Positions 3,001-15,953 of a stretch of DNA of 20,000 bases are shown piece by piece; position 1 is the stretch's first letter, and every line of letters begins with the position of its first letter. The position numbers and the translations under genes were made by a program. The DNA is from an uncultured virus (IMG/VR IMGVR_UViG_3300042480_000533). Lineage: Duplodnaviria; Heunggongvirae; Uroviricota; Caudoviricetes. The notes beneath the pieces were generated by a model. It saw only the letters and a list, made by a program, of their open reading frames with translations. It had not been told where the DNA came from and searched no databases. The stretch is taken from IMG/VR virus record IMGVR_UViG_3300042480_000533; one strand, written 5' to 3'.

Positions 3001-6000
3001 TGAGTTTATCAACGCCTTTGGGGATGCTGGTCGTGGCATCGTAGCTCAGTTGGATGGCATGGTAGCCATGAAACTAATGTCTCGTCGTGTTGCCGATATG
3101 AAGATGATCCTCATTGGTTCCTTGGCATCAATCAACCCAAACATCCTGTCAGATCTTGCACTAGAGGCAATGGAGTTTGATGGCCACACCTATGCCAAGA
3201 TGGCTAAGCTTAAGGGCAAATACACCATTGGTCTAAACATCAAGGCCATGGAAACAACACCAGAAAACGAAATGTTGCTTAAGTTTGCGGAAGAACTTGT
3301 TCACCTTGCCCGAGTCAAGTACATGGCCGAAGGTTCCAACGAATACAGAAAGATCCAAGCAATCTTTAGAACACCTAACTCGGAAGAAATGATCCGAGAG
3401 ATGTTGTTTGCCATGAACAGGGACAAGCCATATGCTGCTATCGAAGCAGATGTTCGGTATGCCATGGAACACACGGACGAGTTCTTGGCTCACTGGGGAG
3501 CTGTCGTGTTGCTGGCCGAAACAGTCTACAGCGAGGAAACGATGTCTGCTCTTGAAGCAAAGTATACCCCAGTAGAAATGCTTAATACATGGTACAAGAA
3601 AGCGTTCTTTAGGATTAAGAGCATTGCCGTCCGAAGTTTGAAAATGGTAAGCCAAATCGCAGTTGATCCGAAATACGCCGCTAATTTCAACGAAATGTAC
3701 AATGTAATGCAGGGAATAATCGGCCAAGGTATGGCAACCCGAGTAGACGCTGGAAACCCAGACACGGCATTTAACGCCGTCAAGTCAATTAGACCCAACT
3801 CTACAGAAGTAACACCAAGCATGGTGACAGACCTTCAGCGGCTCAGCATTGAGTTAAGAAATCTTAATAACAATATAGCAAAGAAAATCCCGTTGTCTCC
3901 CACTGAAAAAATGCGTCTAATTGAAATTGAAGACATCACCAATAACAAGGAAATGAATCCACACGGTATTCTTGATATGACTGAGTTTGATGTCATTCGA
4001 GAAATGGAGAATGTAAACAGAGCGGAAGACGGTGCTATTGTCAGGCTAGAAACCCAGCCGCTGACCGAGCGAGCCGTTTTACAACGGGGTCTTACAAACC
4101 ACCTTGCAGCCAGAGGATCACGTATTGACCAGAACGAAACCTTTGGTGGCTTGTTTAGAAACATTGCAAGTTCTTTAGGGTTGGATGACTTTGTAAGTTT
4201 GACAATCCAGAACAAACTGCTTGCTTCCATTAACGACAGCCAGCTAACCTACAACTCACCCGAAGGCATTTTGGTACTGATTTCCGAAATGATTGACAAC
4301 ACAACCGTAACTACCGAGTCAAGCTACAGACCATCCAGCATTGGTGGTGGGTTTGAGTTTAACAAGGAAGGTCTCAAGGGATATGTAGGGGATATCTGGA
4401 ATGTAGCCACAGGTATCGACAGCAAGTACAAGTCAACCGTAAAAAAGGAAGAAGTATCAAACAATACAGCCCTAATTTTAAACAGCCTACCAACTACAAC
4501 TACTGATTTAGAGATCAGGCGGGATGCGGAGCGTCTTGCTGAAAAGATCAAGTTGTTTAACGGTCAGTTGAGGAGTTTGTTGGTAAAGTCGAGAATCAAG
4601 GACAGGGGAGACAACTTAGATCCAATTGGCCTTAAGACGAGAAGATCTACAAAGCTAAACAGGGAAGACAAGGATCGTGGTCGTAAGGCAGTTGTAAACG
4701 CTATGCGTACCAAGTACACAAACAACCTAACGACCAACGGTGTTGATGCCGTTGTAAACCCCTTTATGTTGTTTATGAGCGGTAATATGCTTGACCCAAG
4801 CATGGACACCATCGGTGTGTCTTCGTCTGAGTTTGCTACAGATCTTCGTAAGTTTACCGATAACCCAAACGATACGGCAGACAACGCAAGAGAAGCCATG
4901 GCCAAGCAGATCGTCAATGATGCACTAAGCATCAAGCTCGGTAGAGAAAAGAACTATAATGCAAGCACGACATTGGATGATGTCAAAAACAGCGCCCGCA
5001 TAAATCCTGGTTATCTCAATGAAGATGTAATTGAAGCTACTAGAAGATTCATTATCAGAACAAGAGAAAACACCCAACGATTCAGCACGGCTTTCAAGCA
5101 CCTAAGTAAGCCTGAGATTGAATTGATTGTCAAATCGGTCATTGAAACCGTATCCCAGACAAGACCAGATTCTTTGACAGCCGAGAAGATCAGGCAAATC
5201 CTGGACAACCGCGAGTCATTCGGGTATTACCAAGGTTTATCTCCTTACATTCCAGAAAGCCATGTCACGGCTACCCCAATGGACATTCTTACCGACCAGT
5301 TCCTAGGTAAACTAGGAGCAACCGCATACTTGTTCTCAGAGGGTGGTCCAGACCTAACCTATAAGGACATCTTCCTAGATCCCGTAAAGCCAAGTGAAAG
5401 CGGCATCCTACAGGTAATGTTTGAAAAAGACCTGTCCAACATTCAGCAAAGCTTGATGCGTGGTCAAGGGTATGACGCTATTCAGAGAATTGTTGTCCAA
5501 AAGACAATGGGAATCGAAGGAGCATACTTCAGTATTTCTCAGTTGATTGATATGTTTAAACGACAAATCTCAATGGAATCAAGTGCCGAAGCCAAGCGCA
5601 TGGGTGTCAGAAACTTTGACAACAGAGGAGATGACGAAACAAGAGCAACCATAATTATGCGTGGCCTAGAAAGACTAGACGCGGCCAACCAAAAAGCCAA
5701 GGAAACATTGGGTACACGGCTAGAAGGCAAGCCTCTTATTGATTTCTTAAATAAGTATGGACCAATGGCAACAACCCTTACTTACGGGCCAAATGCCGCA
5801 TTGGCTACATCGTTGGTAGAAGGAACCATGTCCACGGTCAATGAGCTAATGCGGGGTCACAATCCGTTTACATTCTTGATCGAAGCAATTAGGATGAATG
5901 TCGAGACATCTGTTGGAACTGCATCCAGAGTCGTGTCAAGAAGAGATGGTCGTTTCTCATGGTTTAATGTAGACCCGTATGTTCTCAGTAAGGTAGCCGA

Positions 6001-7438
6001 GAATGCTTTGTGGATGTTTGAGGAAACCACATCTCCCATGATTCCAGGCCAGTTGGTCAGCAACGCGCTGTCTACGGCAGAGATTGAAGACATGTCCAGA
6101 TGGGACAGATTCCTAGCGTTTTCCAGAAGGTCATACTCAGATCCAATGAGATCCCTAAGGGTTGCGGCTGAGAACCAAGCCAACAGAGGTATCTACCAAA
6201 GACTGCATGACGGCAGTCTCCTTAGATTGCGGGACAGCGTTAACAAGATCCTAAGAGACAACCCATCCCCAAGCAATCAGGTATACCGAGAGGTAGCCAG
6301 AGATGCTGGTGTAAGGATGGATGTCGAGTTGATGGCAATCTATGTACGGTCTGGCATCTTTGAGCCAGGTGTCATAGAAACCCTGAACTACGCCAGATCC
6401 AGTGCTCCACCAGAAACAGGCAAGATTCTATTCAGCGTCATGGCAGACCTAGAAGCAGCCCTGCCACCTGGCGGCGTGATCTACGATGGTGTTGTAATCA
6501 CACCAGAAAGAATGCTGGCGGCAAGAACGACTTTGGCATCCTTGAGCAGACAGTATGCTGGACTCAGCATTGTCATGGATCACCCATTGGATGGTACGGC
6601 GGCAGCTTCGGCTACCAGTGTTGTCATAACATTCTTCAAGTCATATCCAGCATTGTTCATGGCTCAGCATGTAATGCGTCAAGGTACGATTACCCCCATG
6701 CTTCGGCATGGTGCCAGGTTGTTGCTGCACGGTATGCTAGACATGATTTACAACATCCTGCTGGCCTTGTCAAGCGGTTGGTACAAATGGGAAAAGTTGA
6801 TGGACCATCTTGAAAAAGGAACCATCAGCAAAGCAGAAGCAACAAAGCTGTTCCTAAGGCACCCAGTCTTTAGTATGAACATTCTTGGTATTGTTACACA
6901 AAGTCTTAGTAAGCTTGCGCTTCCTTCTGGCAGAGACAACAGCATGATTAGTTCAGTAGGCGAAGTAGCCTTGGCTCAACAGGTAAGCAATATATTCAAA
7001 GCAGCTGAGTCATGGTACTACTATGCGTATGACAAGGTACCAGCCGAAAGCGCAGCAGCGTCTACCTATTCGGCATTGCGGGGTGCGTTGTCGTTTATTC
7101 CAGGCAACACCATGGTTCGCCTTACCCTGCAACAAGCATTTGGTCAGGCAGGAACCACAGGAACCGCAGGAACAGCCTCGGCAAAGACAATGAGGTATAT
7201 TGACAGACTGACAGATGAACGGCCAGTTCTTGAGGCAGTACGCAGCATGTTCCCAGGGGGTCTTAAGAACCCCAAGAGAACCGTGTCCGAAGAACCACGG
7301 CAAATTAAGATGACCGATATCCCCAAGGTAAGGCCACCATCGGGTGAACCACAGCCAAAGGTAACTACGCCAACAACAAGATCACCGAGTATCCAAGAGC
7401 AAGCAACCACGCCACTGAAGGCTCCGTCTGGTCTGTAG
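2..7438 (+). CDS. Giant phage virion/DNA-ejection protein, 5'-partial (>2478 aa); internal degenerate zincin-like motif; C-terminus reminiscent of T7 gp16-type internal virion proteins
   Basis: The frame is open from nt 2 through ATG 71 to TAG 7436-7438. No Cys in the 2455-aa translation. EELVH at 3290-3304 with downstream DEFLAHW at 3476-3496. FFKSYP near 6632 and a C-terminal FIPGN are reminiscent of the QFKxF and LP/VP-N motifs of gp16-like proteins. Confidence 0.6.
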   Translation, partial: AINASKEKLRKVYQERINKAAAIMAKHDMSNPGIRSDPKIQDEINIALMGDKKAYETHLMLFTLAKRAATPFKMFTDAETVAMHSALAGQYIDESDIMPFVGKTLFHAMGSELASGRHHMFGSYDFGPQGPKEAQIRVLHGKEKNKYGIWDINEVYESKEREQAYRKAYAMQIMLDLVPNYYHPGYDPDKESMENYFDAMKKRSNLERLAQVNAIRTLEQANSVSPNDPEYENIQETAKKLRKSGFEERLTWVRNSYGRDNKNPVVLDPTVSGLAALRPRYANMDYTQRGMYALIEVMKSREIRQNEMFQKKKLLTAAPQDGDPNSIIPSRFRGFEKTTDKKNLPYIPHQTGNMVTSLVMSPNRETELEAIKLRNSLTYFATQNGLESLLENKEWTRLWMIREWRRQGLEKSVNVMKDQINNGILDMFPSRIAMYESVFKLMGTNARAYSPGQTYSVLDLMAKPEEIRFTTKEMDELRKNFPDGLRYMDLLRHLSTRFDRLEGLKPEFPLVLEPGLIVRGEQGLIKGTPTYKALSVFNIETNNNTVMMLMMSDLFEKEAQEVYRSDPDFDKFPRDSAGNLVLSMLPADKLKSEEILDRVLKKAPQLAAELGTQKGVYFVLHKEHLDGMGKIAKELVTPGQSLLDIKTKLTNMVHVFSQVNNPDTLWYFTPDMVIQFLNSLRNNPVISAAELSWQTHKTVGFANTETDILVLEQQKQLMDNVGRSVDLTHQALVLLHTVDPSSNENALLYRNNYRRKDAFGKPSATLDATMYLGKTFDMEVTVGGKSRMMKNVPLETAVYATDILAAMSKARKLGMDKEADELGEFLLAEMQNSSVKIETNKALRINNTQHIVIKAAVLKSRLEGIKSNRVEGVKDTIMSTLQTEITQEAANKVYKAATRVSRLLQKIADAVPGENQQMTYVAHALLSKMENTEDGIEDNTEIQNKILDAVGVDKTDKERSKAVRAIINARQDLTTVPEDRPFTHLPWDARKDVAKFADRDEFINAFGDAGRGIVAQLDGMVAMKLMSRRVADMKMILIGSLASINPNILSDLALEAMEFDGHTYAKMAKLKGKYTIGLNIKAMETTPENEMLLKFAEELVHLARVKYMAEGSNEYRKIQAIFRTPNSEEMIREMLFAMNRDKPYAAIEADVRYAMEHTDEFLAHWGAVVLLAETVYSEETMSALEAKYTPVEMLNTWYKKAFFRIKSIAVRSLKMVSQIAVDPKYAANFNEMYNVMQGIIGQGMATRVDAGNPDTAFNAVKSIRPNSTEVTPSMVTDLQRLSIELRNLNNNIAKKIPLSPTEKMRLIEIEDITNNKEMNPHGILDMTEFDVIREMENVNRAEDGAIVRLETQPLTERAVLQRGLTNHLAARGSRIDQNETFGGLFRNIASSLGLDDFVSLTIQNKLLASINDSQLTYNSPEGILVLISEMIDNTTVTTESSYRPSSIGGGFEFNKEGLKGYVGDIWNVATGIDSKYKSTVKKEEVSNNTALILNSLPTTTTDLEIRRDAERLAEKIKLFNGQLRSLLVKSRIKDRGDNLDPIGLKTRRSTKLNREDKDRGRKAVVNAMRTKYTNNLTTNGVDAVVNPFMLFMSGNMLDPSMDTIGVSSSEFATDLRKFTDNPNDTADNAREAMAKQIVNDALSIKLGREKNYNASTTLDDVKNSARINPGYLNEDVIEATRRFIIRTRENTQRFSTAFKHLSKPEIELIVKSVIETVSQTRPDSLTAEKIRQILDNRESFGYYQGLSPYIPESHVTATPMDILTDQFLGKLGATAYLFSEGGPDLTYKDIFLDPVKPSESGILQVMFEKDLSNIQQSLMRGQGYDAIQRIVVQKTMGIEGAYFSISQLIDMFKRQISMESSAEAKRMGVRNFDNRGDDETRATIIMRGLERLDAANQKAKETLGTRLEGKPLIDFLNKYGPMATTLTYGPNAALATSLVEGTMSTVNELMRGHNPFTFLIEAIRMNVETSVGTASRVVSRRDGRFSWFNVDPYVLSKVAENALWMFEETTSPMIPGQLVSNALSTAEIEDMSRWDRFLAFSRRSYSDPMRSLRVAAENQANRGIYQRLHDGSLLRLRDSVNKILRDNPSPSNQVYREVARDAGVRMDVELMAIYVRSGIFEPGVIETLNYARSSAPPETGKILFSVMADLEAALPPGGVIYDGVVITPERMLAARTTLASLSRQYAGLSIVMDHPLDGTAAASATSVVITFFKSYPALFMAQHVMRQGTITPMLRHGARLLLHGMLDMIYNILLALSSGWYKWEKLMDHLEKGTISKAEATKLFLRHPVFSMNILGIVTQSLSKLALPSGRDNSMISSVGEVALAQQVSNIFKAAESWYYYAYDKVPAESAAASTYSALRGALSFIPGNTMVRLTLQQAFGQAGTTGTAGTASAKTMRYIDRLTDERPVLEAVRSMFPGGLKNPKRTVSEEPRQIKMTDIPKVRPPSGEPQPKVTTPTTRSPSIQEQATTPLKAPSGL

Positions 7439-7468
7439 AAAATCGGCTTAGGGGTCGAGAATTTTTGT

Positions 7469-7506
7469 GGGGGTAATAGTAGCTTATGGTAAGCTATTTC
7501 CCCCCC
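7469..7506 (+). terminator. Hairpin just after the giant gene (possible terminator or processing site)
   Basis: TAGCTTA-TGG-TAAGCTA core, extended by outer GGGGG/CCCCC arms. No U-tract follows. Confidence 0.4.
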
Positions 7507-7513
7507 TCACCCC

Positions 7514-7552
7514 CAAGGTGTACCTGTGCACCAACGCCCCACAGGAAGAAAG
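7514..7552 (+). repeat. 39-bp upstream element, copy 1 (candidate phage promoter/leader)
   Basis: caaggtgtacctgtgcaccaacgccccacaggaagaaag; 38/39 identical to 7782-7820. Contains a CCTGTG/CACAGG stem and runs into the RBS of the next gene. Confidence 0.85.
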
Positions 7553-7560
7553 GACATGGA

Positions 7561-7722
7561 ATGTTCTACTACAAGGTAATGAATGAGTTCGGTATGTTCG
7601 TGGATTCGGAGTCTTTCGAGACCGCCGAGGCCAGAGACAAGGCGTTGGCCTTGAAGAACTTCGACTCGTACTACATTATCTGGGTTGGCCAGGAGGGCCA
7701 GCCCGCCAAGCAAATTCAGTAA
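7561..7722 (+). CDS. Small hypothetical early protein (53 aa, MFYYKV...)
   Basis: AAAGGA RBS upstream, C/G-ending codon bias like the RNAP gene, followed by a terminator hairpin. Confidence 0.7.
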   Translation: MFYYKVMNEFGMFVDSESFETAEARDKALALKNFDSYYIIWVGQEGQPAKQIQ

Positions 7723-7734
7723 AGCCCTACTGTC

Positions 7735-7770
7735 GCCCCTCTAGGAGCAATCCTAGGGGGGCTTTCAGTT
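7735..7770 (+). terminator. Intrinsic terminator-like hairpin
   Basis: GCCCCTCTAGGA-GCAA-TCCTAGGGGGGC: 12-bp stem (one G-U), GNRA loop, then TTTCAGTT. Confidence 0.7.
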
Positions 7771-7781
7771 GCGCTTTGCAA

Positions 7782-7820
7782 CAAGGTGTACCTGTGCACC
7801 AACGCCACACAGGAAGAAAG
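7782..7820 (+). repeat. 39-bp upstream element, copy 2
   Basis: caaggtgtacctgtgcaccaacgccacacaggaagaaag, ending 9 nt before ATG 7830. Confidence 0.85.
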
Positions 7821-7829
7821 AAAGACAAC

Positions 7830-8048
7830 ATGCTTAGAGATTTCAATAACAAAACCGCACCAACGCCGTCTGGTCTGGACCCGTTCGACTACTACTGGGG
7901 CGGGCGCACGGACGCCAACCTGGAGACGGGAGAGTGGAAGGAGATCTGGCACAGCTCCTTCCGAAACCCATCGAAGGATCACGACATTGTGATTACCTTC
8001 GGTGCAGACGGCAAAATCATTTGTAAAGAAAGGCGCGACGGATTCTGA
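7830..8048 (+). CDS. Small hypothetical early protein (72 aa, MLRDFNNK...)
   Basis: ATG downstream of repeat copy 2 and a purine-rich RBS; codon usage matches the module. Confidence 0.65.
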   Translation: MLRDFNNKTAPTPSGLDPFDYYWGGRTDANLETGEWKEIWHSSFRNPSKDHDIVITFGADGKIICKERRDGF

Positions 8049-8060
8049 TCTGACCGACAA

Positions 8061-8164
8061 CAAACCCTCCATGCTCTTTCAAGGGAGAGCATGGGGATGT
8101 TTGCTGTTGCAAACAACCCTGGCTTGTGGGGATCACAAGCAATCAAGTCTTGGCAATGCCAAGA
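8061..8164 (+). promoter_or_regulatory. Structured leader of the RNAP gene (consecutive hairpins; possible RNase III site or terminator)
   Basis: CCATGCTCTTTC-AAG-GGAGAGCATGG long stem; TGTTTGC/GCAAACA; GCTTGTG/CACAAGC (8122-8140); TCTTGGC-AAT-GCCAAGA (8148-8164). Confidence 0.5.
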
Positions 8165-8178
8165 GAAAGGTAGATTCC

Positions 8179-9978
8179 ATGAATATCATGGATCTCATGG
8201 GCGAAAGCCTTAAGGTGGTATTCGGTGGGCGTTCGATGTCCTTCGCTACTGCGGCGATGAACGCGATGAAGATCGCGTCAGCCGTGGAAACGGAGGCAAA
8301 CGAGCCACCGAACAAGACCTGGGAGCGCAGCAAGATGCTGCTCCAGGAACTGATCTCGGCGGGGGTGCTTCACACCACTCAGATCAGTAACCCCACCACG
8401 GGGTTGGCACAGACCTACTGTGCCTTCACGGAAGGCTTCGCACTTCGGGAGTTCCGCAGAGAGCCGTGCCTCAAGGAAGAGGATCTCCTTACCACCTTTC
8501 GGACGGCGGGTGTTCTCAGCTACCTCGGTAGCTGTGGGATCCGCATCAACCCCGAGGTTGTGGCGTTCATCCGCCGCAACAAGGATCGGTACGAGAAGAC
8601 CGATTCCATGGGACGGAGGGTCACACCCCCGTCCCTGTTCCTCAAGGACGCACAGTCCTTGGAGAACGAGGAGGATGACCGCCCGATCTACATGGACTAC
8701 AAGAGTCCTGACGGTCGGCGCTTCTATGCACTTCACAATCGGTTTACCCACCAAGGTGCCGAATGGATGCGTGGCTCTGTGGATGCGGCTGAGGAGAAGC
8801 CGATCAAGCCCGAGGACATTGACGATGCGTTCAACATCGTCAGTGAAGAGACTGGCGTGACCCGTACCAACTGGCGCGCCATCCTCAAGGACGAGTCCCT
8901 GTGCTTCACGGGCAAGCACTTGGGCCTCAAGACCAGCAAGCCCGCAGCGGTGTACCGTGCTGCTCTCTTCTTCAAAGAAATCCTGGAGAAGGGACGGTCT
9001 GCGTACATCATCCAGCAGGACCAGACTTGCTCAGGGTTCCAGATCATCGCCATGCTGCTGGCATGTCGAAACCTGATGACCTTGACGAACCTGAACGGAG
9101 GCACGAAGCAGGACTTCTACACTGCTTCGTCGGATCTGGCAAGGGGCATGTATTCGGGTGAGTTCTTCCCCGAGTGCTTGTTCATCCGCAGCGGTGCCAA
9201 GTACTTTGTGCTTCGTATCGGCTACGGTGCGGCCACATCCTCGCTGGCACGGGGTCTCATCCTTACTAACCCGCAGGAGAGTCCCGTCCAGTACCTGAGC
9301 GAGGAGGGCGCATTCATTCCTGGAGTCCTCGACAAGCTCCCGATCCAGGACCTCAACGAGGACTACTACGAGATGTGGAAGTCCCTTGGGTGGAAGCGAG
9401 CGGTGGAGGTCAGTCAGCAGACCTCCAAGGCATACTACAATGCCATCATGCAGATCAGCCCCAAGCTGAGGTGGTTCCTGTCCAGTATGAAGCTGGCGAA
9501 CAAGGTCGCTCTTGACCGTGGCGAGTTCTTGTCGTGGGAGCCAATCCTAGGTGAGGTCAAGAAGAATGTCCGCTACACGGCGGACTGGAAGGCCAAGCCC
9601 CGCAAGGTGCAGTTCTTCGACAAGAACGGGAAGGAGTTCTATGTGAACATCCATCCCTTCATGAAGGATGCGGCGGCAAGCGCGGCTCCTCCGTGCTATG
9701 TCCACAGCTTTGATGGTGCAACCATCATGCTGGTGGTGGAGATGTGCAGGGAAATCGGTATCCCCATATACCCGATCCACGACTCCACCGGTACCACAGT
9801 GGACAACTTCAAGAAGGTGAAGCAGATGTGGCTGGATGCCACGCGGCACATCTTCTGCTACGGTCCCTCTCCGTTCTGGGATGTTGTCAAGCGGTACAAC
9901 CTCCCAGTTCCTGCATCTCTCTTTCCCAATGGGCAACCAGACCCCATCGATGTCTGGGGCGAGCACTTTATGGGTTGA
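8179..9978 (+). CDS. Single-subunit (T7/T3-family) DNA-dependent RNA polymerase, compact 599 aa
   Basis: Motif A QDQTCSGFQ (Asp at 9019; T7 DGSCSGIQH). Motif B RSGAKYFVLRIGYG (Rx3Kx7YG, 9187). APPCYVHSFDG (T7 APNFVHSQDG). Motif C IHDSTGT (Asp at 9781). DGRRFY...FTHQG (T7 DWRGRVY...FNPQG). GAAAGGT RBS before ATG 8179. Confidence 0.93.
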   Translation: MNIMDLMGESLKVVFGGRSMSFATAAMNAMKIASAVETEANEPPNKTWERSKMLLQELISAGVLHTTQISNPTTGLAQTYCAFTEGFALREFRREPCLKEEDLLTTFRTAGVLSYLGSCGIRINPEVVAFIRRNKDRYEKTDSMGRRVTPPSLFLKDAQSLENEEDDRPIYMDYKSPDGRRFYALHNRFTHQGAEWMRGSVDAAEEKPIKPEDIDDAFNIVSEETGVTRTNWRAILKDESLCFTGKHLGLKTSKPAAVYRAALFFKEILEKGRSAYIIQQDQTCSGFQIIAMLLACRNLMTLTNLNGGTKQDFYTASSDLARGMYSGEFFPECLFIRSGAKYFVLRIGYGAATSSLARGLILTNPQESPVQYLSEEGAFIPGVLDKLPIQDLNEDYYEMWKSLGWKRAVEVSQQTSKAYYNAIMQISPKLRWFLSSMKLANKVALDRGEFLSWEPILGEVKKNVRYTADWKAKPRKVQFFDKNGKEFYVNIHPFMKDAAASAAPPCYVHSFDGATIMLVVEMCREIGIPIYPIHDSTGTTVDNFKKVKQMWLDATRHIFCYGPSPFWDVVKRYNLPVPASLFPNGQPDPIDVWGEHFMG

Positions 9979-10004
9979 TTGAATCAACCAGAAGGGACAG
10001 AACA

Positions 10005-10493
10005 ATGAAGGTTATCGTTAAGTCTATCGGTAAGGGTGTCAAAGACCTCAACGCTGAGGTCGGGCACATCCCAGGTACCCAGTCGGGTACCACCCAGGTC
10101 TTCGTCCGCGAAGGTGACAAGATCAGGGTTCTCATCGACCTCGCTAACAAGAGCACCAAGTCTGCCTTCTGGCAGAAGAAGTTGGTGCAGAACGAGAACG
10201 GGTTGTTCGTTCTCCTCAGCAACGAGACCCCCGCTCAGGTCTTTGGCCATGAGCTGGTCATGGAGAAGAAGGACACCCAGTACCGTCTGGGTGTCAAGGT
10301 GACCGACAAGGAGGGCACCAAGCTCGGTGTCTTCTACGGTCCCATCGCCAACAGCCCCGAAGAGGCCAAGACTCTGTTCTGGTCCACATGGAACATGAAG
10401 GAACTCAATCCCTTTGTTCCCGAGGATCGCAAGACGGTGCATCTCCGCCTCACCGTAATGGGGTACCGCACTCAGGAGGTGGCCTCCTTCTGA
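10005..10493 (+). CDS. Hypothetical protein (162 aa) directly downstream of the RNAP
   Basis: AGGGA RBS, ATG 10005, strong C/G3 codon bias, beta-strand-like Lys/Val-rich sequence. Confidence 0.8.
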   Translation: MKVIVKSIGKGVKDLNAEVGHIPGTQSGTTQVFVREGDKIRVLIDLANKSTKSAFWQKKLVQNENGLFVLLSNETPAQVFGHELVMEKKDTQYRLGVKVTDKEGTKLGVFYGPIANSPEEAKTLFWSTWNMKELNPFVPEDRKTVHLRLTVMGYRTQEVASF

Positions 10494-10513
10494 CAGAATA
10501 GATAGAGCAGCAT

Positions 10514-10850
10514 AACCCCTTCGGGGTTTCTTGTGCCCCCTTTGGGGTACATCTGCCCCCTTCGGGGCCTTGGCTATAGGCCCTTCGGGAGTCATTCGAC
10601 CCTTCGGGACCTTGGCTGACCCTTCGGTGTGTGTGCCTGTGGGGGTCACTATCATCATTGGGTAGTCCCCTATGGGATATTTGCATTATTGCGTATACGC
10701 CCCTAGGGGGCTTTAGGCCCTTCGGGACCCCTACGGGTACCCTTCGGGCGTTAGAACGCCCTATAGGCGATCCTAGGGGCATTAGAATGGATGTGGTAAT
10801 CTCTTTGGGGAAGTGTTTCCCTTGGGGGTTACCTGTTTTTCCCCTTGGGA
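10514..10850. repeat. Array of short CCC-N3/4-GGG palindromic mini-hairpins
   Basis: CCTTCGG at 10518, 10559, 10582, 10601, 10621, 10719 and 10741, with a CCTTTGG variant at ~10539 (about 20-nt period), plus CCCTATGGG, CCCTAGGGG, CCCTACGGG, CCCTATAGG and CCCTTGGG variants. Confidence 0.75.
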
Positions 10851-11043
10851 CTGCCATAACATGTCATGTGACTGCCATTTCATGCCATATTGGCACACCC
10901 ACGCCCCAACGCACGCGAGATCCCAACACCAACGCGCCTTCGGCGTGCGGGCAACTCTAAGTTGCCCTTGGTGAGAAAATGTCAGGGTGATTGTCCACAG
11001 CGCGTATACTGTGACAATGACCCCCATTGCAAAAGGACAGAGA

Positions 11044-11304
11044 ATGGCAGATATCAATGAAGCAGCCGCAAAGTTGGCGGCATTCGGAGTGACCGTGACC
11101 ACCCAGCCCGTGAAGCGGGAGACGCGGGTGGTCGATCCCCTGAACAGGGCCATCGGTCTCTTGGCTGCGGCCAAGAACCCCAACCTCTCGGAAGAGAGCC
11201 GAGCAGCCGCCATGGCCCGCCTTGGCACTTTGCTCGACAGCCAGCCTGGGCTGGCATCCAGCGTGTCGGCTGTGGCTGAGAAGCAAGCCAACAACGGTCG
11301 ATGA
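11044..11304 (+). CDS. Hypothetical protein (86 aa, MADINEAAAK...)
   Basis: AAAGGA RBS, Ala-rich helical product, preceded by a long hairpin at 10985-11023. Confidence 0.7.
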   Translation: MADINEAAAKLAAFGVTVTTQPVKRETRVVDPLNRAIGLLAAAKNPNLSEESRAAAMARLGTLLDSQPGLASSVSAVAEKQANNGR

Positions 11305-11308
11305 AGCA

Positions 11309-11559
11309 GGACCTGAGCATGTCATAAAACTGCTCAACTTTACTAGGACGGGTTAAGCCTAGTGCGTTCACATGGTAACATGTGGGGTCCCGATTGCTAC
11401 AACCGTGGCAACTGTAGACTTGAAACACCTACAGCAAATATTGCCAGTTTCAACGGTAATGGGCTAACAAACATGGGATACTTAAACCCACATTCCATGT
11501 TTGGCAGGGTTATATAGGGTTACATGGGGCCATCTAGTGGAAACGCTAGGTGGTCTTTT
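11309..11559 (+). ncRNA. Putative structured non-coding RNA element A
   Basis: No credible ORF. Pseudoknot 11310-11336; hairpins 11341-11364, 11367-11386 (GUAA loop), 11412-11434 and 11440-11460 with complementary loops, 11468-11503; ends in a terminator. Confidence 0.5.
11528..11559 (+). terminator. Intrinsic terminator
   Basis: GGCCATCTAGTG-GAAA-CGCTAGGTGGTC followed by TTTT. Confidence 0.7.
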
Positions 11560-11571
11560 ACAGGAGGTGTC

Positions 11572-11691
11572 ATGAACGACGAAGTCAAAAAGCTGTTGGA
11601 TCAGCGAGAGATCTTGATCGACCAGATCAACATCCTACAAGCCGAGCTGTTAAAGCACGGTATCCCACTCCCGCCTGTACCAGAGGTTTAG
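11572..11691 (+). CDS. Small coiled-coil-like peptide (39 aa, MNDEVKKLLDQREILIDQINILQAELLKHGIPLPPVPEV)
   Basis: Strong AGGAGGTG RBS; below the ORF-track cutoff; translated by hand. Confidence 0.6.
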   Translation: MNDEVKKLLDQREILIDQINILQAELLKHGIPLPPVPEV

Positions 11692-11700
11692 TTCTCTGAC

Positions 11701-12120
11701 GGGCATTCTCCCCGCAAGGGGAAAGCCCACATAGGGCACCGCAAGCAACCTAGCCTATAGGCGGTTTATAAATAGTAGGACACCCTTTTGTTGTGGGTTT
11801 GGGAATAATCACCCCAAGCCAACCGAGCCTGAATATGCTCTGGTTATCAAAACTATTCTGGACTAAACGCAGCCATTGTCTGCAAAGACATAGTTTGGGC
11901 TGTATAGAACTTTGTTGTGGATAAGCCCCAACAAATACGCCGTCAAATTAGCGGTACACTCTAAGCCTGCACTAGAGGGTGATACTTCTCCTAGGTTGCA
12001 GCAGGAGCGGATATGGTTGCTGGCAAACCATATCTTGTTGAAAGGAGGCCACCGTGTTACTCCGAGCGGGCAATTCGGAGTTCCTTATAAGATGTACTCT
12101 GGTGTACAGAGTGCGCCTTT
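11701..12120 (+). ncRNA. Putative large structured non-coding RNA element B (~420 nt)
   Basis: Long-range pair GCAACCTAG (11745-11753)/CTAGGTTGC (11991-11999), GCAA-tetraloop hairpins, pseudoknot 11821-11858 and at least six further hairpins. Confidence 0.55.
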
Positions 12121-12135
12121 ACAGGAGAATAAACA

Positions 12136-12471
12136 ATGAAGCATCAAGTAAACTTGCTTGGCAACAGCGTGAAGCGACCAAGGATTCTGCTTGGTGATGG
12201 ATGTAGCCTGAGCATTCAGGCAAGTGAATACCATTACTGTACTCCTCGTTCATCCTTTGCAACCTTTTACACCGCATGGGAGATTGGGTTTCCTAGTAAG
12301 GCGATCCCAGAGATCCTGGAGTGGGCAGAGGATCCGGAGGATCCAACCGAAACAGTCTACGGGTATGTTCCTGTAGATGTGATTCTTGATGTGATCAAGG
12401 CCCGAGGTGGTACCGTACAGCAAGAAAAAACATATGAGCAAGCAACGCAAAATCAATCGTCGGAAGCGTAA
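12136..12471 (+). CDS. Conserved-looking phage hypothetical protein (SIQASEYHYCTPR...EIGFPS...TVYGYVP)
   Basis: AGGAG RBS, 111 aa; the motif pattern resembles a common phage hypothetical family (recall only). Confidence 0.8.
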   Translation: MKHQVNLLGNSVKRPRILLGDGCSLSIQASEYHYCTPRSSFATFYTAWEIGFPSKAIPEILEWAEDPEDPTETVYGYVPVDVILDVIKARGGTVQQEKTYEQATQNQSSEA

Positions 12472-12565
12472 GACTGGATATGTTAACCTAGTTCCTGCGT
12501 CTCCATTTACCCGTACATTCAACTCTTTCAAGGAATTCGCAGATGCAATGGTACATCGCAGTTGA
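12434..12565 (+). CDS. Small basic peptide (43 aa, MSKQRKINRRKRKTG...)
   Basis: Fills the gap between neighbours; its TGA overlaps the ATG of the next gene (TGATG). Confidence 0.45.
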   Translation: MSKQRKINRRKRKTGYVNLVPASPFTRTFNSFKEFADAMVHRS

Positions 12566-13017
12566 TGGGACAGTCTGGCCAACAGCCAAGGAAGCAAGGG
12601 AGGTCATGGATGGCCGTTGACCCTACCCTGTTCAACGAGGTGGTTACCAGAAAGACCGCCCTTCGGGAAAAGATGATTGGTGATGTCATGGTAAGTGGCA
12701 AGCCTAGGTGGGCTGCGGCTATGCTGGTTGACCAGCGGATGCCTACGACAACCAACCGAAAGCAACTTGCAGAGGTCGGTATTGATGTGACTGGGCCAGA
12801 CCAGATCCAGGAAATCCTGGATACCATGGCTATGTTTGGTGTTTATTTCATTAACACCAAGGGAATAACCAAGGAAGAATTCTGGGACATCCTCCAACCC
12901 ATTCTGGACGAGGAGATCACAGATCTCCCACCTAACAACGACATGTGTGAGTTTATTGAACTTCAGGGACAAGAGGGCAATAACGAGTTTTTCAATGTCC
13001 CAGTAAAGGAAATGTGA
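12565..13017 (+). CDS. Hypothetical protein (~150 aa, acidic C-terminus)
   Basis: ORF track; start uncertain (12565 or ATG at 12607 behind GGGAGG). Confidence 0.7.
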   Translation: MGQSGQQPRKQGRSWMAVDPTLFNEVVTRKTALREKMIGDVMVSGKPRWAAAMLVDQRMPTTTNRKQLAEVGIDVTGPDQIQEILDTMAMFGVYFINTKGITKEEFWDILQPILDEEITDLPPNNDMCEFIELQGQEGNNEFFNVPVKEM

Positions 13018-13021
13018 TAAC

Positions 13022-13261
13022 ATGGGTGACAACATCCGAATTGCTCTTTGGGAAGTCAACAGTGAGAATCCCAAGAGTCCTAAGTTCAATGGCATCGTGA
13101 CCATTGATGGCAAAGAAATCAAGGTGTCGGTATGGGATAACAAGGATGCTCAGCATCCCAAGGCCCCCCGACTCAAGGGCAAGACCTCGCGTCCTGCGCC
13201 TATGGCGGAAACGGCAGAACCTGAGACCCTGGATTCAGTCCAGGCACCTTTGCCTTTCTAA
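13022..13261 (+). CDS. Putative small ssDNA-binding protein (DUF736/Drc-like pattern)
   Basis: NPKSPKFNGIVTIDGKEIKVSVW beta-rich core, acidic/Pro linker and C-terminal LPF tail typical of phage SSBs. Confidence 0.55.
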   Translation: MGDNIRIALWEVNSENPKSPKFNGIVTIDGKEIKVSVWDNKDAQHPKAPRLKGKTSRPAPMAETAEPETLDSVQAPLPF

Positions 13262-13276
13262 TAACAATACATATAA

Positions 13277-13398
13277 GGGGAGTACTTAGGTTGACCTAGG
13301 ATACTCTAGGAGTTATAACATATAGTTATAATACTACTTAGGTAATATACCTAGGTAACCTAGAGTCCACGGTTAAACCTAAGTACTCCCCATTTTTT
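13277..13398. repeat. Nested palindrome with a 16-bp perfect terminal inverted repeat, followed by a T-tract
   Basis: GGGGAGTACTTAGGTT (13277-13292)/AACCTAAGTACTCCCC (13376-13391); inner ACTCTAGG/CCTAGAGT, TTATAAC/GTTATAA and TACTTAGGTA/TACCTAGGTA. Confidence 0.8.
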
Positions 13399-13407
13399 TC
13401 CCCGAGT

Positions 13408-13650
13408 ATGACTTTTAACCATAGACTAAATGTAACTCTAGAACAGGAGACCTATGATGTCCTAGTTCTTGTAGAAGGTGTTGTGATTCCTGAACCTTAT
13501 GGTTCTGTGGACAGATACAATCCAGTTGTTCTTTCCTTTAAGATCCTTAACCAAGACAATCCTGTACTGTATGATTTAATCAACACTATGTACATGTCTC
13601 AGCTGGAAGAAGCTGTAAGCAACAACTTTATTGGAGTAAATAATGAATAA
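13408..13650 (+). CDS. Hypothetical protein (80 aa)
   Basis: ORF track; overlaps the start of the next gene. Confidence 0.6.
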   Translation: MTFNHRLNVTLEQETYDVLVLVEGVVIPEPYGSVDRYNPVVLSFKILNQDNPVLYDLINTMYMSQLEEAVSNNFIGVNNE

Positions 13651-14017
13651 GAAAATTGCAGACATGTGGTGTGCAGCCCTACGGAGTGGGGAGTACACCC
13701 AAGGCAGGGGATCTCTTTGCACTGTGAATGACAACGGCAAGAAGTTTTGTTGCTTGGGTGTCCTTTGCGAGTTGTACAAGCAGCGCGACCCATCAATGGA
13801 TGTACGCTACTCATGGGCCACTGCCGATAGCAAATTTGTTTTATACAACTCCTATTCATGTAACCTTCCGCCAGAAGTTTGTCTATGGAGCGGTGTTAAA
13901 ACCCAGCTGGGATTCCGATGCAAAAATGGAAAAAGCCTTGTTCACCTAAATGATTCAAGTTATTTTTCTTTTGATCAGATCGCCAATGTAATCGAAGAAG
14001 AATGGGAGACACTGTGA
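13643..14017 (+). CDS. CCLGVL-family paralog 1
   Basis: WCAALRSGEYTQG...FCCLGVLCELY...LND...SFDQIANVIE; GGAG RBS. Confidence 0.85.
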   Translation: MNKKIADMWCAALRSGEYTQGRGSLCTVNDNGKKFCCLGVLCELYKQRDPSMDVRYSWATADSKFVLYNSYSCNLPPEVCLWSGVKTQLGFRCKNGKSLVHLNDSSYFSFDQIANVIEEEWETL

Positions 14018-14361
14018 ACCAAGAAATTAAGAATCGCTGGATTGACGCCCTCCGTAGTGGTGACTATGAGCAAGGTAAGAATTACCTGTGTAATAGGAAC
14101 GGTAGTGGAGGCAGAGAGTGGTGTTGCCTCGGTGTTCTCACCGACTTGTACCAGAAAGAAACAAACAACAAGCTTATTGCTACTGGTGACAATCCATGTA
14201 CTTTTGGTGCAGTTGTGTATGGTAATTCATGTCAGTTTCTTTCATCAGAAGTTCATGAGTGGGCTGGTCTTACCATCAAGCAGGTTGATGTGTGCATTAA
14301 ACTTAATGACACATATAGTGTAGGCTTTCAAGGCATTGCCGCTGTGGTTGATACTTGGTAG
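14014..14361 (+). CDS. CCLGVL-family paralog 2
   Basis: GTG start overlapping the previous TGA; WIDALRSGDYEQG...WCCLGVLTDLY...LND. Confidence 0.85.
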   Translation: MNQEIKNRWIDALRSGDYEQGKNYLCNRNGSGGREWCCLGVLTDLYQKETNNKLIATGDNPCTFGAVVYGNSCQFLSSEVHEWAGLTIKQVDVCIKLNDTYSVGFQGIAAVVDTW

Positions 14362-14380
14362 CAACCAATGGAGACAACAA

Positions 14381-14725
14381 ATGAAGAAAGAACTTAAACA
14401 AAAGTGGATTGATGCTCTCCGTAGTAAAGACTATCGACAGACAACCAACTGTCTTCGCCACAGAAGTGGGTATTGTTGTCTTGGTGTCCTTTGTGACATC
14501 GTGGATAACACCAAATGGTGTTCAAATGGACAGCAAGGATCAATGTACTACTTTGATTCAGGCTATGAAATTGCGTTTCCAGAAGAGTCTTGGTTGAACA
14601 CGATTGGTCTGCCAAAGGATAATGCTAATGCTTTGGCTAGAATGAACGATGAGGGCTTAGAATCATTTGAAAACATCGCGGATTGGATCGAAGAGAATGT
14701 GTTCGTAACTAGTGAACAACCTTGA
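14381..14725 (+). CDS. CCLGVL-family paralog 3
   Basis: GGAG RBS; WIDALRSKDYRQ...YCCLGVLCDI...MND...SFENIADWIE. Confidence 0.85.
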   Translation: MKKELKQKWIDALRSKDYRQTTNCLRHRSGYCCLGVLCDIVDNTKWCSNGQQGSMYYFDSGYEIAFPEESWLNTIGLPKDNANALARMNDEGLESFENIADWIEENVFVTSEQP

Positions 14726-14741
14726 TGTAATTGACACCTAG

Positions 14742-14814
14742 GCTTCGGTAACTCAGTTGGTAGAGTATCGGACTTTTAATCCGTTAGTCGCGGGTTCGAG
14801 TCCCGCCCGAAGCA
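14742..14814 (+). tRNA. trnK: tRNA-Lys, anticodon UUU (CCA not encoded)
   Basis: Acceptor GCTTCGG/CCGAAGC+A; D arm ACTC-AGTTGGTA-GAGT; anticodon loop CT-TTT-AA (TTT at 14775-14777); T arm GCGGG-TTCGAGT-CCCGC. Confidence 0.95.
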
Positions 14815-15566: not shown

Positions 15567-15953
15567 ATGAAAAAGAAGATTGCAGATATGTGGGTTAATG
15601 CCCTTCGTTCTGATGAATACAAACAGGGTTATCGTACGCTTTGTCGTGTTAACTATGACAACAACTCTAAGACCTATTGTTGTCTTGGTGTTCTTTGCGA
15701 TTTGTATCAGAAGAATCAAACAAAGAACAAAAAGAAAAAGCTTAGCGTGAAACCCGAAACAACTGGTTCTACCGTTATTGCTTTCGATAGCAATAGTGGT
15801 GTACTCCCCCAGGCAGTACAGAATTGGGCTGGAATGTCTTCTTTCAATGGACACATCCCAGGTGGTGGTCCTAATCTCGTTAAAATGAACGATAATGGAA
15901 AGACATTCATTGAGATTTCCGACCAGATCGAAAAGCATTACAAGGAGCTGTGA
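15567..15953 (+). CDS. CCLGVL-family paralog 4
   Basis: WVNALRSDEYKQG...YCCLGVLCDLY...LPQAVQNWAG...MNDNGKTFIEISDQIE. Confidence 0.85.
   Translation: MKKKIADMWVNALRSDEYKQGYRTLCRVNYDNNSKTYCCLGVLCDLYQKNQTKNKKKKLSVKPETTGSTVIAFDSNSGVLPQAVQNWAGMSSFNGHIPGGGPNLVKMNDNGKTFIEISDQIEKHYKEL

Follow-up and report, generated by a model that had tools for sequence, protein, structure and literature searches.

The RNA locus and its setting

The stretch of DNA under study (hereafter the window) comprises 20,000 nucleotides of an uncultured Caudoviricetes virus (IMG/VR record IMGVR_UViG_3300042480_000533), and the DNA sequencing runs that contain its sequence are labelled as lake or freshwater metagenomes. Every plausible gene of the window lies on the + strand, including all genes that flank a gap at 11692-12135, which holds short open reading frames (ORFs) only. 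Upstream of the gap is a gene for a T7-type single-subunit RNA polymerase (8002-9978), followed by many small ORFs and a tRNA-Lys (14742-14814). Here we show that a modular RNA of ~355 nt, rich in pseudoknots and belonging to an undescribed family, is encoded on the + strand from about 11738 to 12092. Its locus lies 1.3-2.1 kb downstream of the polymerase gene. An initial annotation, made from the sequence alone, had proposed a novel large phage RNA of ~420 nt with several domains at 11701-12120. Its central idea holds, as we find a conserved, multi-pseudoknot, non-coding family on the + strand without a match in Rfam. The RNA is indeed multi-domain, but the conserved unit is limited to 11738-12092, and the last ~40 nt belong to a separate cassette.

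From 5′ to 3′ the RNA consists of a pseudoknotted module A, a variable region and a core of ~225 nt, in which helix C, hairpins D and E, the kissing hairpins F1 and F2, hairpin G with its pseudoknot and hairpin H follow one another (Table 1). This architecture comprises four tertiary pairings, three of which were counted for covariation. On the + strand the gap folds at -154.8 kcal/mol, whereas dinucleotide shuffles reach -130.4 ± 7.0 kcal/mol (z -3.48), with a single shuffle in 100 doing as well; the signal of the - strand is weaker (z -2.04). The conserved G-U pairs of the + strand would become A-C mismatches if read on the other strand. From these pairs, the stronger z score of the + strand and the covariation described below we conclude that the structure is real and that it resides on this strand. 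All complementarities listed in the initial annotation are present in the sequence, and its hairpins at 11701-11728, 11796-11820, 11870-11902 (inner TGTCT-GCAA-AGACA), 11911-11935, 12009-12035, 12059-12081 and 12094-12114 are supported by comparison with relatives.

Covariation in the core

The core (about 11868-12092) was aligned in two ways. The MAFFT alignment held 17 distinct sequences and misaligned helices E, F1 and F2 between two core subtypes; this part was therefore rebuilt with a covariance model from one subtype, which gave 18 distinct sequences (28 matches in 58 sources). The model-fitted alignment leans towards the modelled helices, and the G-loop pseudoknot and the kissing loops are not part of the model. 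In the MAFFT alignment 44 pairs were 92.9% paired, as against 81.9% in shuffles and 32-45% in slid controls; half of them (22/44) had changed on both sides, and on none of five measures did any of 500 shuffles match the real alignment. The model-fitted alignment gave 35 pairs that were 96.8% paired, 20 of them changed on both sides, and again its covariation score lay beyond all 500 shuffles. Over the two core alignments and module A, slid controls were 30-48% paired. Absence of covariation, named in the initial annotation as a sign against an RNA, is thus not what the relatives show: compensatory change is abundant in three alignments.

Individual helices illustrate how far the sequences have drifted while pairing was kept. 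Pair 41/74 of helix C occurs as CG seven times, GC seven times, AU twice and GU once, and the hairpin within this helix is present in 14 of 17 sequences (15 distinct sequences). At the site of hairpin D, a hairpin of at least five pairs exists in 17 of 17 homologs, in 14 distinct sequences. Changes on both sides affect five of the seven pairs of F1, four of the five of F2 and seven of the nine of hairpin G. The tertiary contacts behave likewise: the loops of F1 and F2 kiss through CUGCA (11967-11971) and UGCAG (11997-12001), with pair 149/180 as GC (10), CG (6) or UG (1), and pair 158/183 of the hairpin G pseudoknot is CG in nine cases and GC in nine. The contact between the kissing loops could be intramolecular or could join two molecules.

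For this contact the initial annotation had given CCTGC (11966-11970) with GCAGG (12001-12005); the pairing exists, but its register was off by one. Two long-range helices proposed at the same time fared worse. The 9-bp helix 11745-11753/11991-11999 is not conserved, since it needs two extra nucleotides that the F2 loop has in the window alone. The pairing CACCCT (11781-11786)/AGGGTG (11976-11981) shows no covariation, and its 3′ strand is taken by the covarying local helix F1. Both are best read as chance complementarities.

Hairpin H sits in an invariant block of 31 nt. In two relatives (L047/L049) there is a second, diverged copy of this hairpin (GACCGAG...UUCGGUC), in which two double changes preserve the stem. 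As a side observation, L049 and L058 carry an insertion of ~450 nt between the two diverged copies (about 2260-2700 in L058) with two T-arm-like GGGGTTCGAATCCCC motifs, in which neither ARAGORN nor Rfam called a tRNA. We also considered hairpin H with the following UUCCUUAU as an intrinsic terminator, defined by a GC-rich stem and at least 5 U in the next 8 nt. The tail UUCCUUAU has 5 U in 8, but the terminator scan called no site on the + strand of 11692-12135, and the candidate was dropped.

Protein, DNA site or known RNA family

Codon-like conservation would have spoken for a protein-coding gene, and the homologs have none. In the core, substitutions fall on codon positions 1, 2 and 3 of the longest window ORF in the ratio 461/464/407, 67 of 95 indel runs are not a multiple of three, and relatives contain insertions of 155-250 nt within the RNA region. 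Without third-position bias, with indels out of frame and with such long insertions, the ORFs at 11793-11924, 11912-12139 and 12054-12197 were rejected as genes.

The conserved unit might instead act as DNA, namely as a replication origin, a packaging site or a promoter for the phage RNA polymerase. Such an element would agree with the single copy per genome, with the location at a step in GC content (0.55 to 0.43) and with the position behind the polymerase gene, which recalls the primary origin of T7 located just after gene 1. Yet more than 40 base pairs show compensatory changes, conserved G-U pairs stand on one strand only, and there are pseudoknots and loop-loop pairings, none of which a site in double-stranded DNA would produce. 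Furthermore, GC skew shows no turn at the gap, and one would expect a genome to contain several promoters for the phage polymerase, not a single one. A DNA element is accordingly very improbable.

Known RNA families were searched with the 4227 models of Rfam 15, which include GOLLD, ROOL, HEARO, OLE, tmRNA, RNase P, group I/II introns and riboswitches. At gathering thresholds the tRNA-Lys at 14742-14814 was the only match in the whole window. With E values up to 10 over 10900-12300, the only matches within 11701-12120 were two chance hits of CRISPR repeats at 11706-11723. When 146 nt alone were searched with the laxest filters, a snoRNA (E 0.38) and RF01107 (E 2.3) came out best, neither of them credible. 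Up to E 10, the covariance models of GOLLD and ROOL recognised neither sequence nor structure, and those of hatchet, HDV-like, twister, twister-sister and hammerhead ribozymes had no match in module A either. Hence the earlier impression that the RNA fits neither tmRNA nor RNase P nor introns extends to all 4227 families. A literature search, including work on new phage ribozyme classes, found no description of this motif.

Table 1. Structural features of the non-coding tract in the window, in 5′ to 3′ order.
Feature	Coordinates	Strand	Remarks
Motif B, canonical copy	11310-11337	+	H-type pseudoknot: stem GAC/GUC, loop C-UGAGCA-U, A-rich linker, UGCUCA; immediately precedes the pistol-like element
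Pistol-ribozyme-like element	11348-11392	+	RF02679, 29.3 bits (gathering 34.5); model positions 23-68 of 68, no P1 matched
Stable hairpin and U run	11527-11559	+	Directly abuts module A in other lineages; in the window the ORF 11572-11691 is inserted after it
GCAA-tetraloop hairpin	11701-11728	+	Outside the conserved unit, on its 5′ side; belongs to the unrelated stable hairpins found before module A
Module A, 5′ pseudoknot, 44 nt	11738-11781	+	Alignment of 34 distinct sequences
Small hairpin CAC/GUG after module A	11781-11795	+	By eye from alignments; ACAC/GUGU, ACAU/AUGU, ACA/UGU in relatives
Hairpin GGUUUGGG / CCCCAAGCC	11796-11820	+	Window-type lineages only
Motif B, window version	11821-11858	+	Stem 11821-11828/11837-11845; loop GAAUA 11831-11835 with UAUUC 11854-11858 past linker AUCAAAAC
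Helix C (11870-11874/11898-11902) enclosing hairpin 11877-11890, then conserved junction UGUAUAGAACU	11868-11911	+	Covariation
Hairpin D	11911-11935	+	Sequence variable, position constant
Conserved AUACG and hairpin E (11939-11942/11952-11955)	11936-11955	+	2/4 pairs changed on both sides, 100% of cells paired
Hairpins F1 (11957-11963/11973-11981, GG bulge) and F2 (11988-11992/12003-12007)	11957-12007	+	Covariation
Hairpin G (12009-12017/12027-12035) and pseudoknot, loop UGGC 12021-12024 with GCCA 12048-12051	12009-12051	+	Covariation
Block CACCGUGUUA, hairpin H (12060-12066/12074-12080, loop CGGGCAA) and UUCCUUAUAAGAU	12050-12093	+	Sequence invariant in relatives
Hairpin I (12094-12100/12108-12114) and CCUUUACAGGAG (ribosome-binding site) before start codon 12136	12094-12135	+	Covarying stem

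Module A, a near-invariant pseudoknot

Module A reads ACCGC-AAGCAACC-(UA)-GCCUAU-AG-GCGGU-UUAUAAAUA-GUAGGA-C. It forms two interleaved helices, S1 between 11738-11742 (ACCGC) and 11761-11765 (GCGGU), and S2 between 11753-11758 and 11775-11780, and its conserved single-stranded runs are AAGCAACC and UAUAAAUA. S2 has changed on both sides in five of six pairs, with a covariation score reached by 0 of 500 shuffles, and it is 90.4% paired versus 30-48% in slid controls. S1 lacks covariation support because it never varies. RNAalifold, run on two sequences, proposed a long-range pairing between GGCGG of module A and ACGCC (11938-11942). It was rejected as a general rule, since the RNA that follows module A is of quite another kind in eight relatives (L052, L054, L056, L057, L060-L062 and L064).

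The 5′ boundary of the module is sharp. Conservation begins abruptly at A11738 whatever lies upstream, the 34 distinct flanks containing unrelated hairpins. In 27 of these 34 the last base of a stable but unrelated hairpin is no more than 10 nt away from the first base of module A, mostly at a distance of 0-5 nt, the corresponding figure in shuffles being 31%. In the window this place is taken by the hairpin at 11701-11728, which shows a compensatory change from C-G to U-A relative to the closest relative (L001) and exists in the variants CUCCCC/GGGGAA, CUCCUC/GAGGAA and CUCUCC/GGAGAA.

Variable region and motif B

Between module A and the core the RNA differs among lineages, and this region accepts inserted modules, among them copies of motif B. 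The hairpin at 11796-11820 has weak support, as only one-sided changes that preserve pairing (U-G to U-A, G-C to G-U) were found. Better defined is the element at 11821-11858, where a possible pseudoknot had been suspected from the sequence alone and where comparison reveals a covarying one, which we term motif B. Across instances both its stem and its loop-tail helix covary, the latter occurring as UGAGCA/UGCUCA, UAAGCA/UGCUUA, UGAAUA/UAUUCA, UAAAUA/UAUUUA and UGAGUA/UACUCA. A mechanical scan of 53 oriented loci yielded 77 matches on the strand of module A versus 12 on the opposite strand, and 48 of the 77 start 0-199 nt after the start of module A.

The preQ1-I/II, SAM-II and guanidine-III aptamers are likewise built as H-type pseudoknots that have conserved loops and an A-rich linker. 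By analogy, module A or motif B might serve as the ligand aptamer of a riboswitch controlling the downstream genes, all the more as a helix that sequesters the ribosome-binding site (RBS) is possible at the 3′ end. We consider this very improbable: no riboswitch family matches, module A is ~340 nt away from the RBS, motif B is multi-copy and also stands upstream of the pistol element, and the downstream genes have no function in common.

The upstream tract and its pistol-like element

The stretch 11305-11571, which has several further hairpins besides the elements listed in Table 1, is more structured than the gap (z -4.39; 0 of 200 shuffles), and therefore the non-coding tract extends over ~830 nt (11305-12135), interrupted in the window solely by the small ORF at 11572-11691. 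This ORF (39 aa from ATG, with a good RBS) is found in the window only; L001 and L091 have a non-coding module of ~175 nt in its place. The listed ORF at 11362-11517 is probably not a gene, since it overlaps the structured elements, has a 1-nt indel relative to L001 and lacks third-position bias.

The pistol-like element of the window scores below the Rfam gathering threshold, but ACUAGG (11342-11347) can pair with CCUAGU (11359-11364) as a 6-bp pistol pseudoknot, and the orthologous place in L063 reaches a score of 38.9. Altogether, 12 of 15 viral loci have a pistol ribozyme that exceeds the gathering score, and in every case it shares the strand of module A; it lies 166-735 nt upstream of module A in ten loci and 355-991 nt downstream in two. 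In one relative (L059, 1535-1711) a sub-threshold match to the manA RNA motif (38.8 bits versus gathering 55.2, E 1.3e-6) was noticed between pistol and module A; the equivalent stretch of the window has no such match.

Weinberg et al. reportedly found new ribozyme classes in 2015 by their proximity to known ones. In this light module A could itself be a new self-cleaving ribozyme class that cuts at its own 5′ edge and, together with pistol, dices the transcript, an idea that is compatible with the RNA being either a free molecule or a leader. The nearby pistol on the same strand, the abrupt conservation edge over 34 distinct flanks and the compact pseudoknot with long, strictly conserved single-stranded runs speak for this reading. 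The sharp edge could, however, be a mere module boundary, and the known self-cleaving models tried (see above) do not match. An HDV-like fold was examined and rejected: with 1-2 bases between the 5′ strand of S2 and the 3′ strand of S1 there is no room for P3/L3, P1.1 is lacking as well, and the junction AUAUAAAUA before the 3′ strand of S2 contains no C in 31 of 34 sequences. For comparison, HDV-like ribozymes are defined in PMC10879173 by a nested double pseudoknot of P1/P1.1/P2/P3 with the catalytic C first in J4/2. One RNA contig of a relative starts ~3 nt inside module A, but strain variation would break assembly there, so that this is not evidence of cleavage. On balance, a ribozyme function of module A appears improbable. 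Slightly less probable still is the wider scenario in which module A as a new self-cleaving ribozyme would dice the transcript together with pistol and release a ~355-nt RNA that would act on its own, for example by multimerising, as GOLLD and ROOL do, via its palindromic kissing loops (CUGCA/UGCAG).

Distribution among uncultured phages

A blastn search with 11500-12300 against 50,697 deposited phage records gave no match, and the RNA polymerase found one weak match in such records. Relatives were retrieved from IMG/VR instead: the protein encoded downstream of the gap led to 14 loci, and a search with the RNA polymerase arrived at the same contig as closest. In this contig (L001/L015) the flanking genes are 88-90% identical to those of the window and 11734-11864 is 95% identical. 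The hairpins at 11870-11902 and 11911-11935 are exchanged for different hairpins, a block of 155 nt is inserted after 11864, and the small ORF 11572-11691 is missing.

An exact 21-mer from hairpin H located five viral stretches in IMG/VR, and a gapped pattern from the 5′ module located 15. A slightly longer pattern of this module gave 43 metagenome stretches, of which one is a chance match and 42 are real, with two tandem copies in four loci. A 16-mer scan of IMG/VR returned 31 stretches, where ~28 chance matches are expected by a rough estimate; by blastn only the one on the contig of L001 itself is related. Including the window, there are 62 real instances of module A with 35 distinct 52-mers. 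The module is single-copy in all five phage records that were searched whole, and a control with the reversed pattern found none. Three of these records are 100% complete (67.7-69.0 kb); the contigs closest to the window measure 45-49 kb, one of them being rated 73% complete. Among 185,579 species genomes the module A pattern had 36 matches, none with the rest of the module, a number that corresponds to chance expectation in a rough estimate. The RNA family is thus confined to phage-like contigs of uncultured freshwater phages, is present in one copy per genome and is absent from Rfam.

The RNA downstream of module A varies by lineage. A core of the window type is present in 28 of the 58 sources searched; in other lineages ~190-200 nt of a different folded RNA precede the next gene, and the minimal form of the RNA in relatives is ~200 nt. 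In the four loci with tandem modules (L091, L095, L113 and L114) the two copies of module A are 223 nt apart (1001 and 1224 in L091), one in a long and one in a short form, and the full core follows the second copy alone.

Further features of the window

Several observations concern parts of the window other than the RNA. A giant ORF at 2-7438 (at least 2478 aa) runs off the start of the window; it has no match in Pfam, PHROG or, by tblastn, in deposited phages. Where it can be aligned to the closest relative it is 65-73% identical, being far more diverged than the rest of the window. Between this ORF and the RNA polymerase gene there is a 39-nt direct repeat (7514-7552 and 7782-7820; 97% identical, 268 nt apart), which includes a small hairpin followed by ACAGGAAG and resembles the gene-start cassettes. 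The segment 7514-7784 is 95% identical to the closest relative, above the value of the flanking genes. Four paralogs of PHROG 18067 (13643-14017, 14002-14361, 14336-14725 and 15567-15953) surround the tRNA-Lys and have a repeated block of 26-42 nt in common. Across 7000-13500 the GC content rises in a step from 0.44 to 0.55-0.58 (7-11.5 kb) and then drops again to 0.43; the non-coding tract coincides with this drop (0.55 to 0.43), as at a junction between mosaic modules.

Discrete RNA or operon leader

The region behind hairpin H, 12094-12135, is a gene-start cassette and not part of the RNA core, because the cassette also stands alone elsewhere. Hairpin and RBS occur by themselves before an extra gene in L001, and a similar hairpin with UUUUACAGGAGG precedes the ORF at 11572. 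What follows the cassette is not conserved: the first ORF after the RNA falls into eight groups without detectable mutual similarity among 19 distinct sequences (one being a 4-residue ORF), and tRNA genes follow the module A region in 2 of 21 loci (L057 and L061). On the + strand of 10900-12600 no sigma-70-like promoter was detected, nor was a repeated promoter-like motif of the T7 kind found.

RNA libraries contain parts of the region. One metatranscriptome holds an exact contig of 153 nt on 11880-12032, and another RNA library holds contigs of relatives on 11812-11864 and 11935-12092. Metatranscriptome mapping, which the initial annotation had recommended, thus finds assembled contigs that cover parts of the region, but these demonstrate presence and not transcription, and stretches without coverage are uninformative.

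From these data we propose, with a probability of about one half, that the molecule acts as RNA and is released from a polycistronic transcript, as opposed to being a gene-specific leader. It would be transcribed within a long polycistronic transcript and then set free, or would at least fold independently, as a discrete stable RNA. This origin is suggested by the lack of a promoter-like site, by the hairpin that usually stands 0-5 nt before module A and by the pistol ribozyme that usually lies 166-735 nt upstream on the same strand. The 5′ edge of the RNA would be module A, and its 3′ edge would be hairpin H or an extended hairpin before the RBS of the next gene. Possible roles are those of a scaffold, a decoy or a factor-binding RNA. 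We favour an RNA acting as such because the downstream gene is not conserved, because the architecture is richer than a translational gate needs, and because the unit is bracketed by signals that look like processing or insulating elements (pistol, the flanking hairpins and the cassette of hairpin and RBS).

A number of points weigh against this proposal. The invariance of module A at 19 to 22 positions is partly forced by the search patterns; in a scan with a pattern free of S1 there were at least six true copies of module A among the 119 matches listed, all with identical S1. The promoter scan covered sigma-70-type sites only, so that a promoter of the phage RNA polymerase could be missed. 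The library data are assembled contigs with possible DNA carry-over and carry no information on ends, strand or level; moreover, the match on 11935-12092 belongs to a contig of 1599 nt that extends into the genes downstream and fits an unprocessed leader equally well. Finally, the RNA ends a few bases before the RBS, as in a cis-acting leader, and UCCU (12082-12085) could pair with AGGA (12123-12126) of the Shine-Dalgarno sequence and thereby sequester the RBS.

The last points lead to the most serious alternative, a generic cis-acting operon leader that would stabilise the message, confer terminator resistance or gate the RBS. There are precedents for such functions: the put RNA of phage HK022 makes the polymerase terminator-resistant, and RNase III cuts at the early sites of T7. 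In the gating form, UUCCU (12081-12085) would keep AGGAG (12123-12127) paired, and the RBS would become accessible once a factor acts or the extended hairpin is cut. A leader would explain why the RNA always ends just before a hairpin, an RBS and a start codon, why all flanking genes are on the same strand and why a library contig runs on into them. It also agrees with the preservation of the possible anti-Shine-Dalgarno pairing, in which the only changes seen, C to U and A to G (L085 and L091), leave wobble pairs; the same pairing nevertheless lacks any compensatory change. It is difficult to reconcile a leader with a downstream gene that is unrelated between phages, with a cassette that exists without the RNA and with tRNA genes in place of an ORF at two loci, and ~355 nt with four tertiary pairings far exceed the needs of known translational gates. 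We thus regard the leader as rather less probable than an RNA that acts as such. Even if it were an operon leader only, it would be unusually elaborate and common to a group of uncultured lake phages without a match among the 50,697 deposited records.

Comparison with known systems

Several known RNAs resemble parts of this one. RNase III processing hairpins lie between the early genes of T7, and hairpin I with a possible lower stem, directly before the RBS, could likewise separate the RNA from the message. The two are likened by position; the possible lower stem is invariant. Motif B shares with the preQ1-I aptamer a short hairpin and an A-rich tail whose end pairs with the hairpin loop, but it has no preQ1 match, its second helix comprises 5-6 instead of 3-4 pairs, and it is multi-copy in one tract. 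Among the Rfam models, only RF01107, the upstream-pseudoknot-domain pseudoknot of plant-virus 3′ UTRs (untranslated regions), overlaps module A; both have a stem CCGC/GCGG followed by UUAUAAAU-G. The score is not significant (14.6 bits versus gathering 39, E 2.3), and loop length, host and position (5′ versus 3′) differ, so that the resemblance is read as convergence on the classical H-type pseudoknot.

The pistol ribozyme (RF02679) is a neighbour and not a relative, as the RNA described here has no match to the pistol model; pistol thereby gains a recurring neighbour. Like the HDV-like and theta ribozymes of phages (PMC10879173), module A is pseudoknotted, stands where a phage RNA unit begins at its 5′ side and requires no particular sequence upstream. 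It differs from them in having two interleaved helices only, without P3/L3/P1.1 and without the cytosine that PMC10879173 names as catalytic, first in the junction before the last strand. Being a near-invariant pseudoknot of 44 nt, it is a cheap candidate for self-cleavage or ligand-binding tests.

As a whole, the RNA is best compared with GOLLD and ROOL, which the initial annotation had named as precedents. GOLLD (RF02032) and ROOL (RF03087), with ~580-800 nt, assemble into multimers and are assumed to act as RNA. The RNA of the window is of the same kind, being large, conserved, multi-pseudoknot, non-coding and phage-borne, but it is not homologous to either. All are ornate phage RNAs with peripheral module insertions, sometimes beside tRNA genes and partly from lake metagenomes; the present one is smaller (~355 nt), is not recognised by the covariance models and is followed by tRNA genes in only the two loci mentioned. 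GOLLD and ROOL are treated in bioRxiv 10.1101/2024.12.08.627333. Large, intricately folded RNAs without an assigned role are rare, and GOLLD, ROOL, OLE and raiA proved to be structurally unprecedented. The RNA reported here is a compact, well-delimited addition to this group, with dozens of natural variants and a secondary structure backed by covariation. With its ~355 nt, a minimal form of ~200 nt and four tertiary pairings, it is ready for chemical probing or cryo-EM (electron cryo-microscopy).

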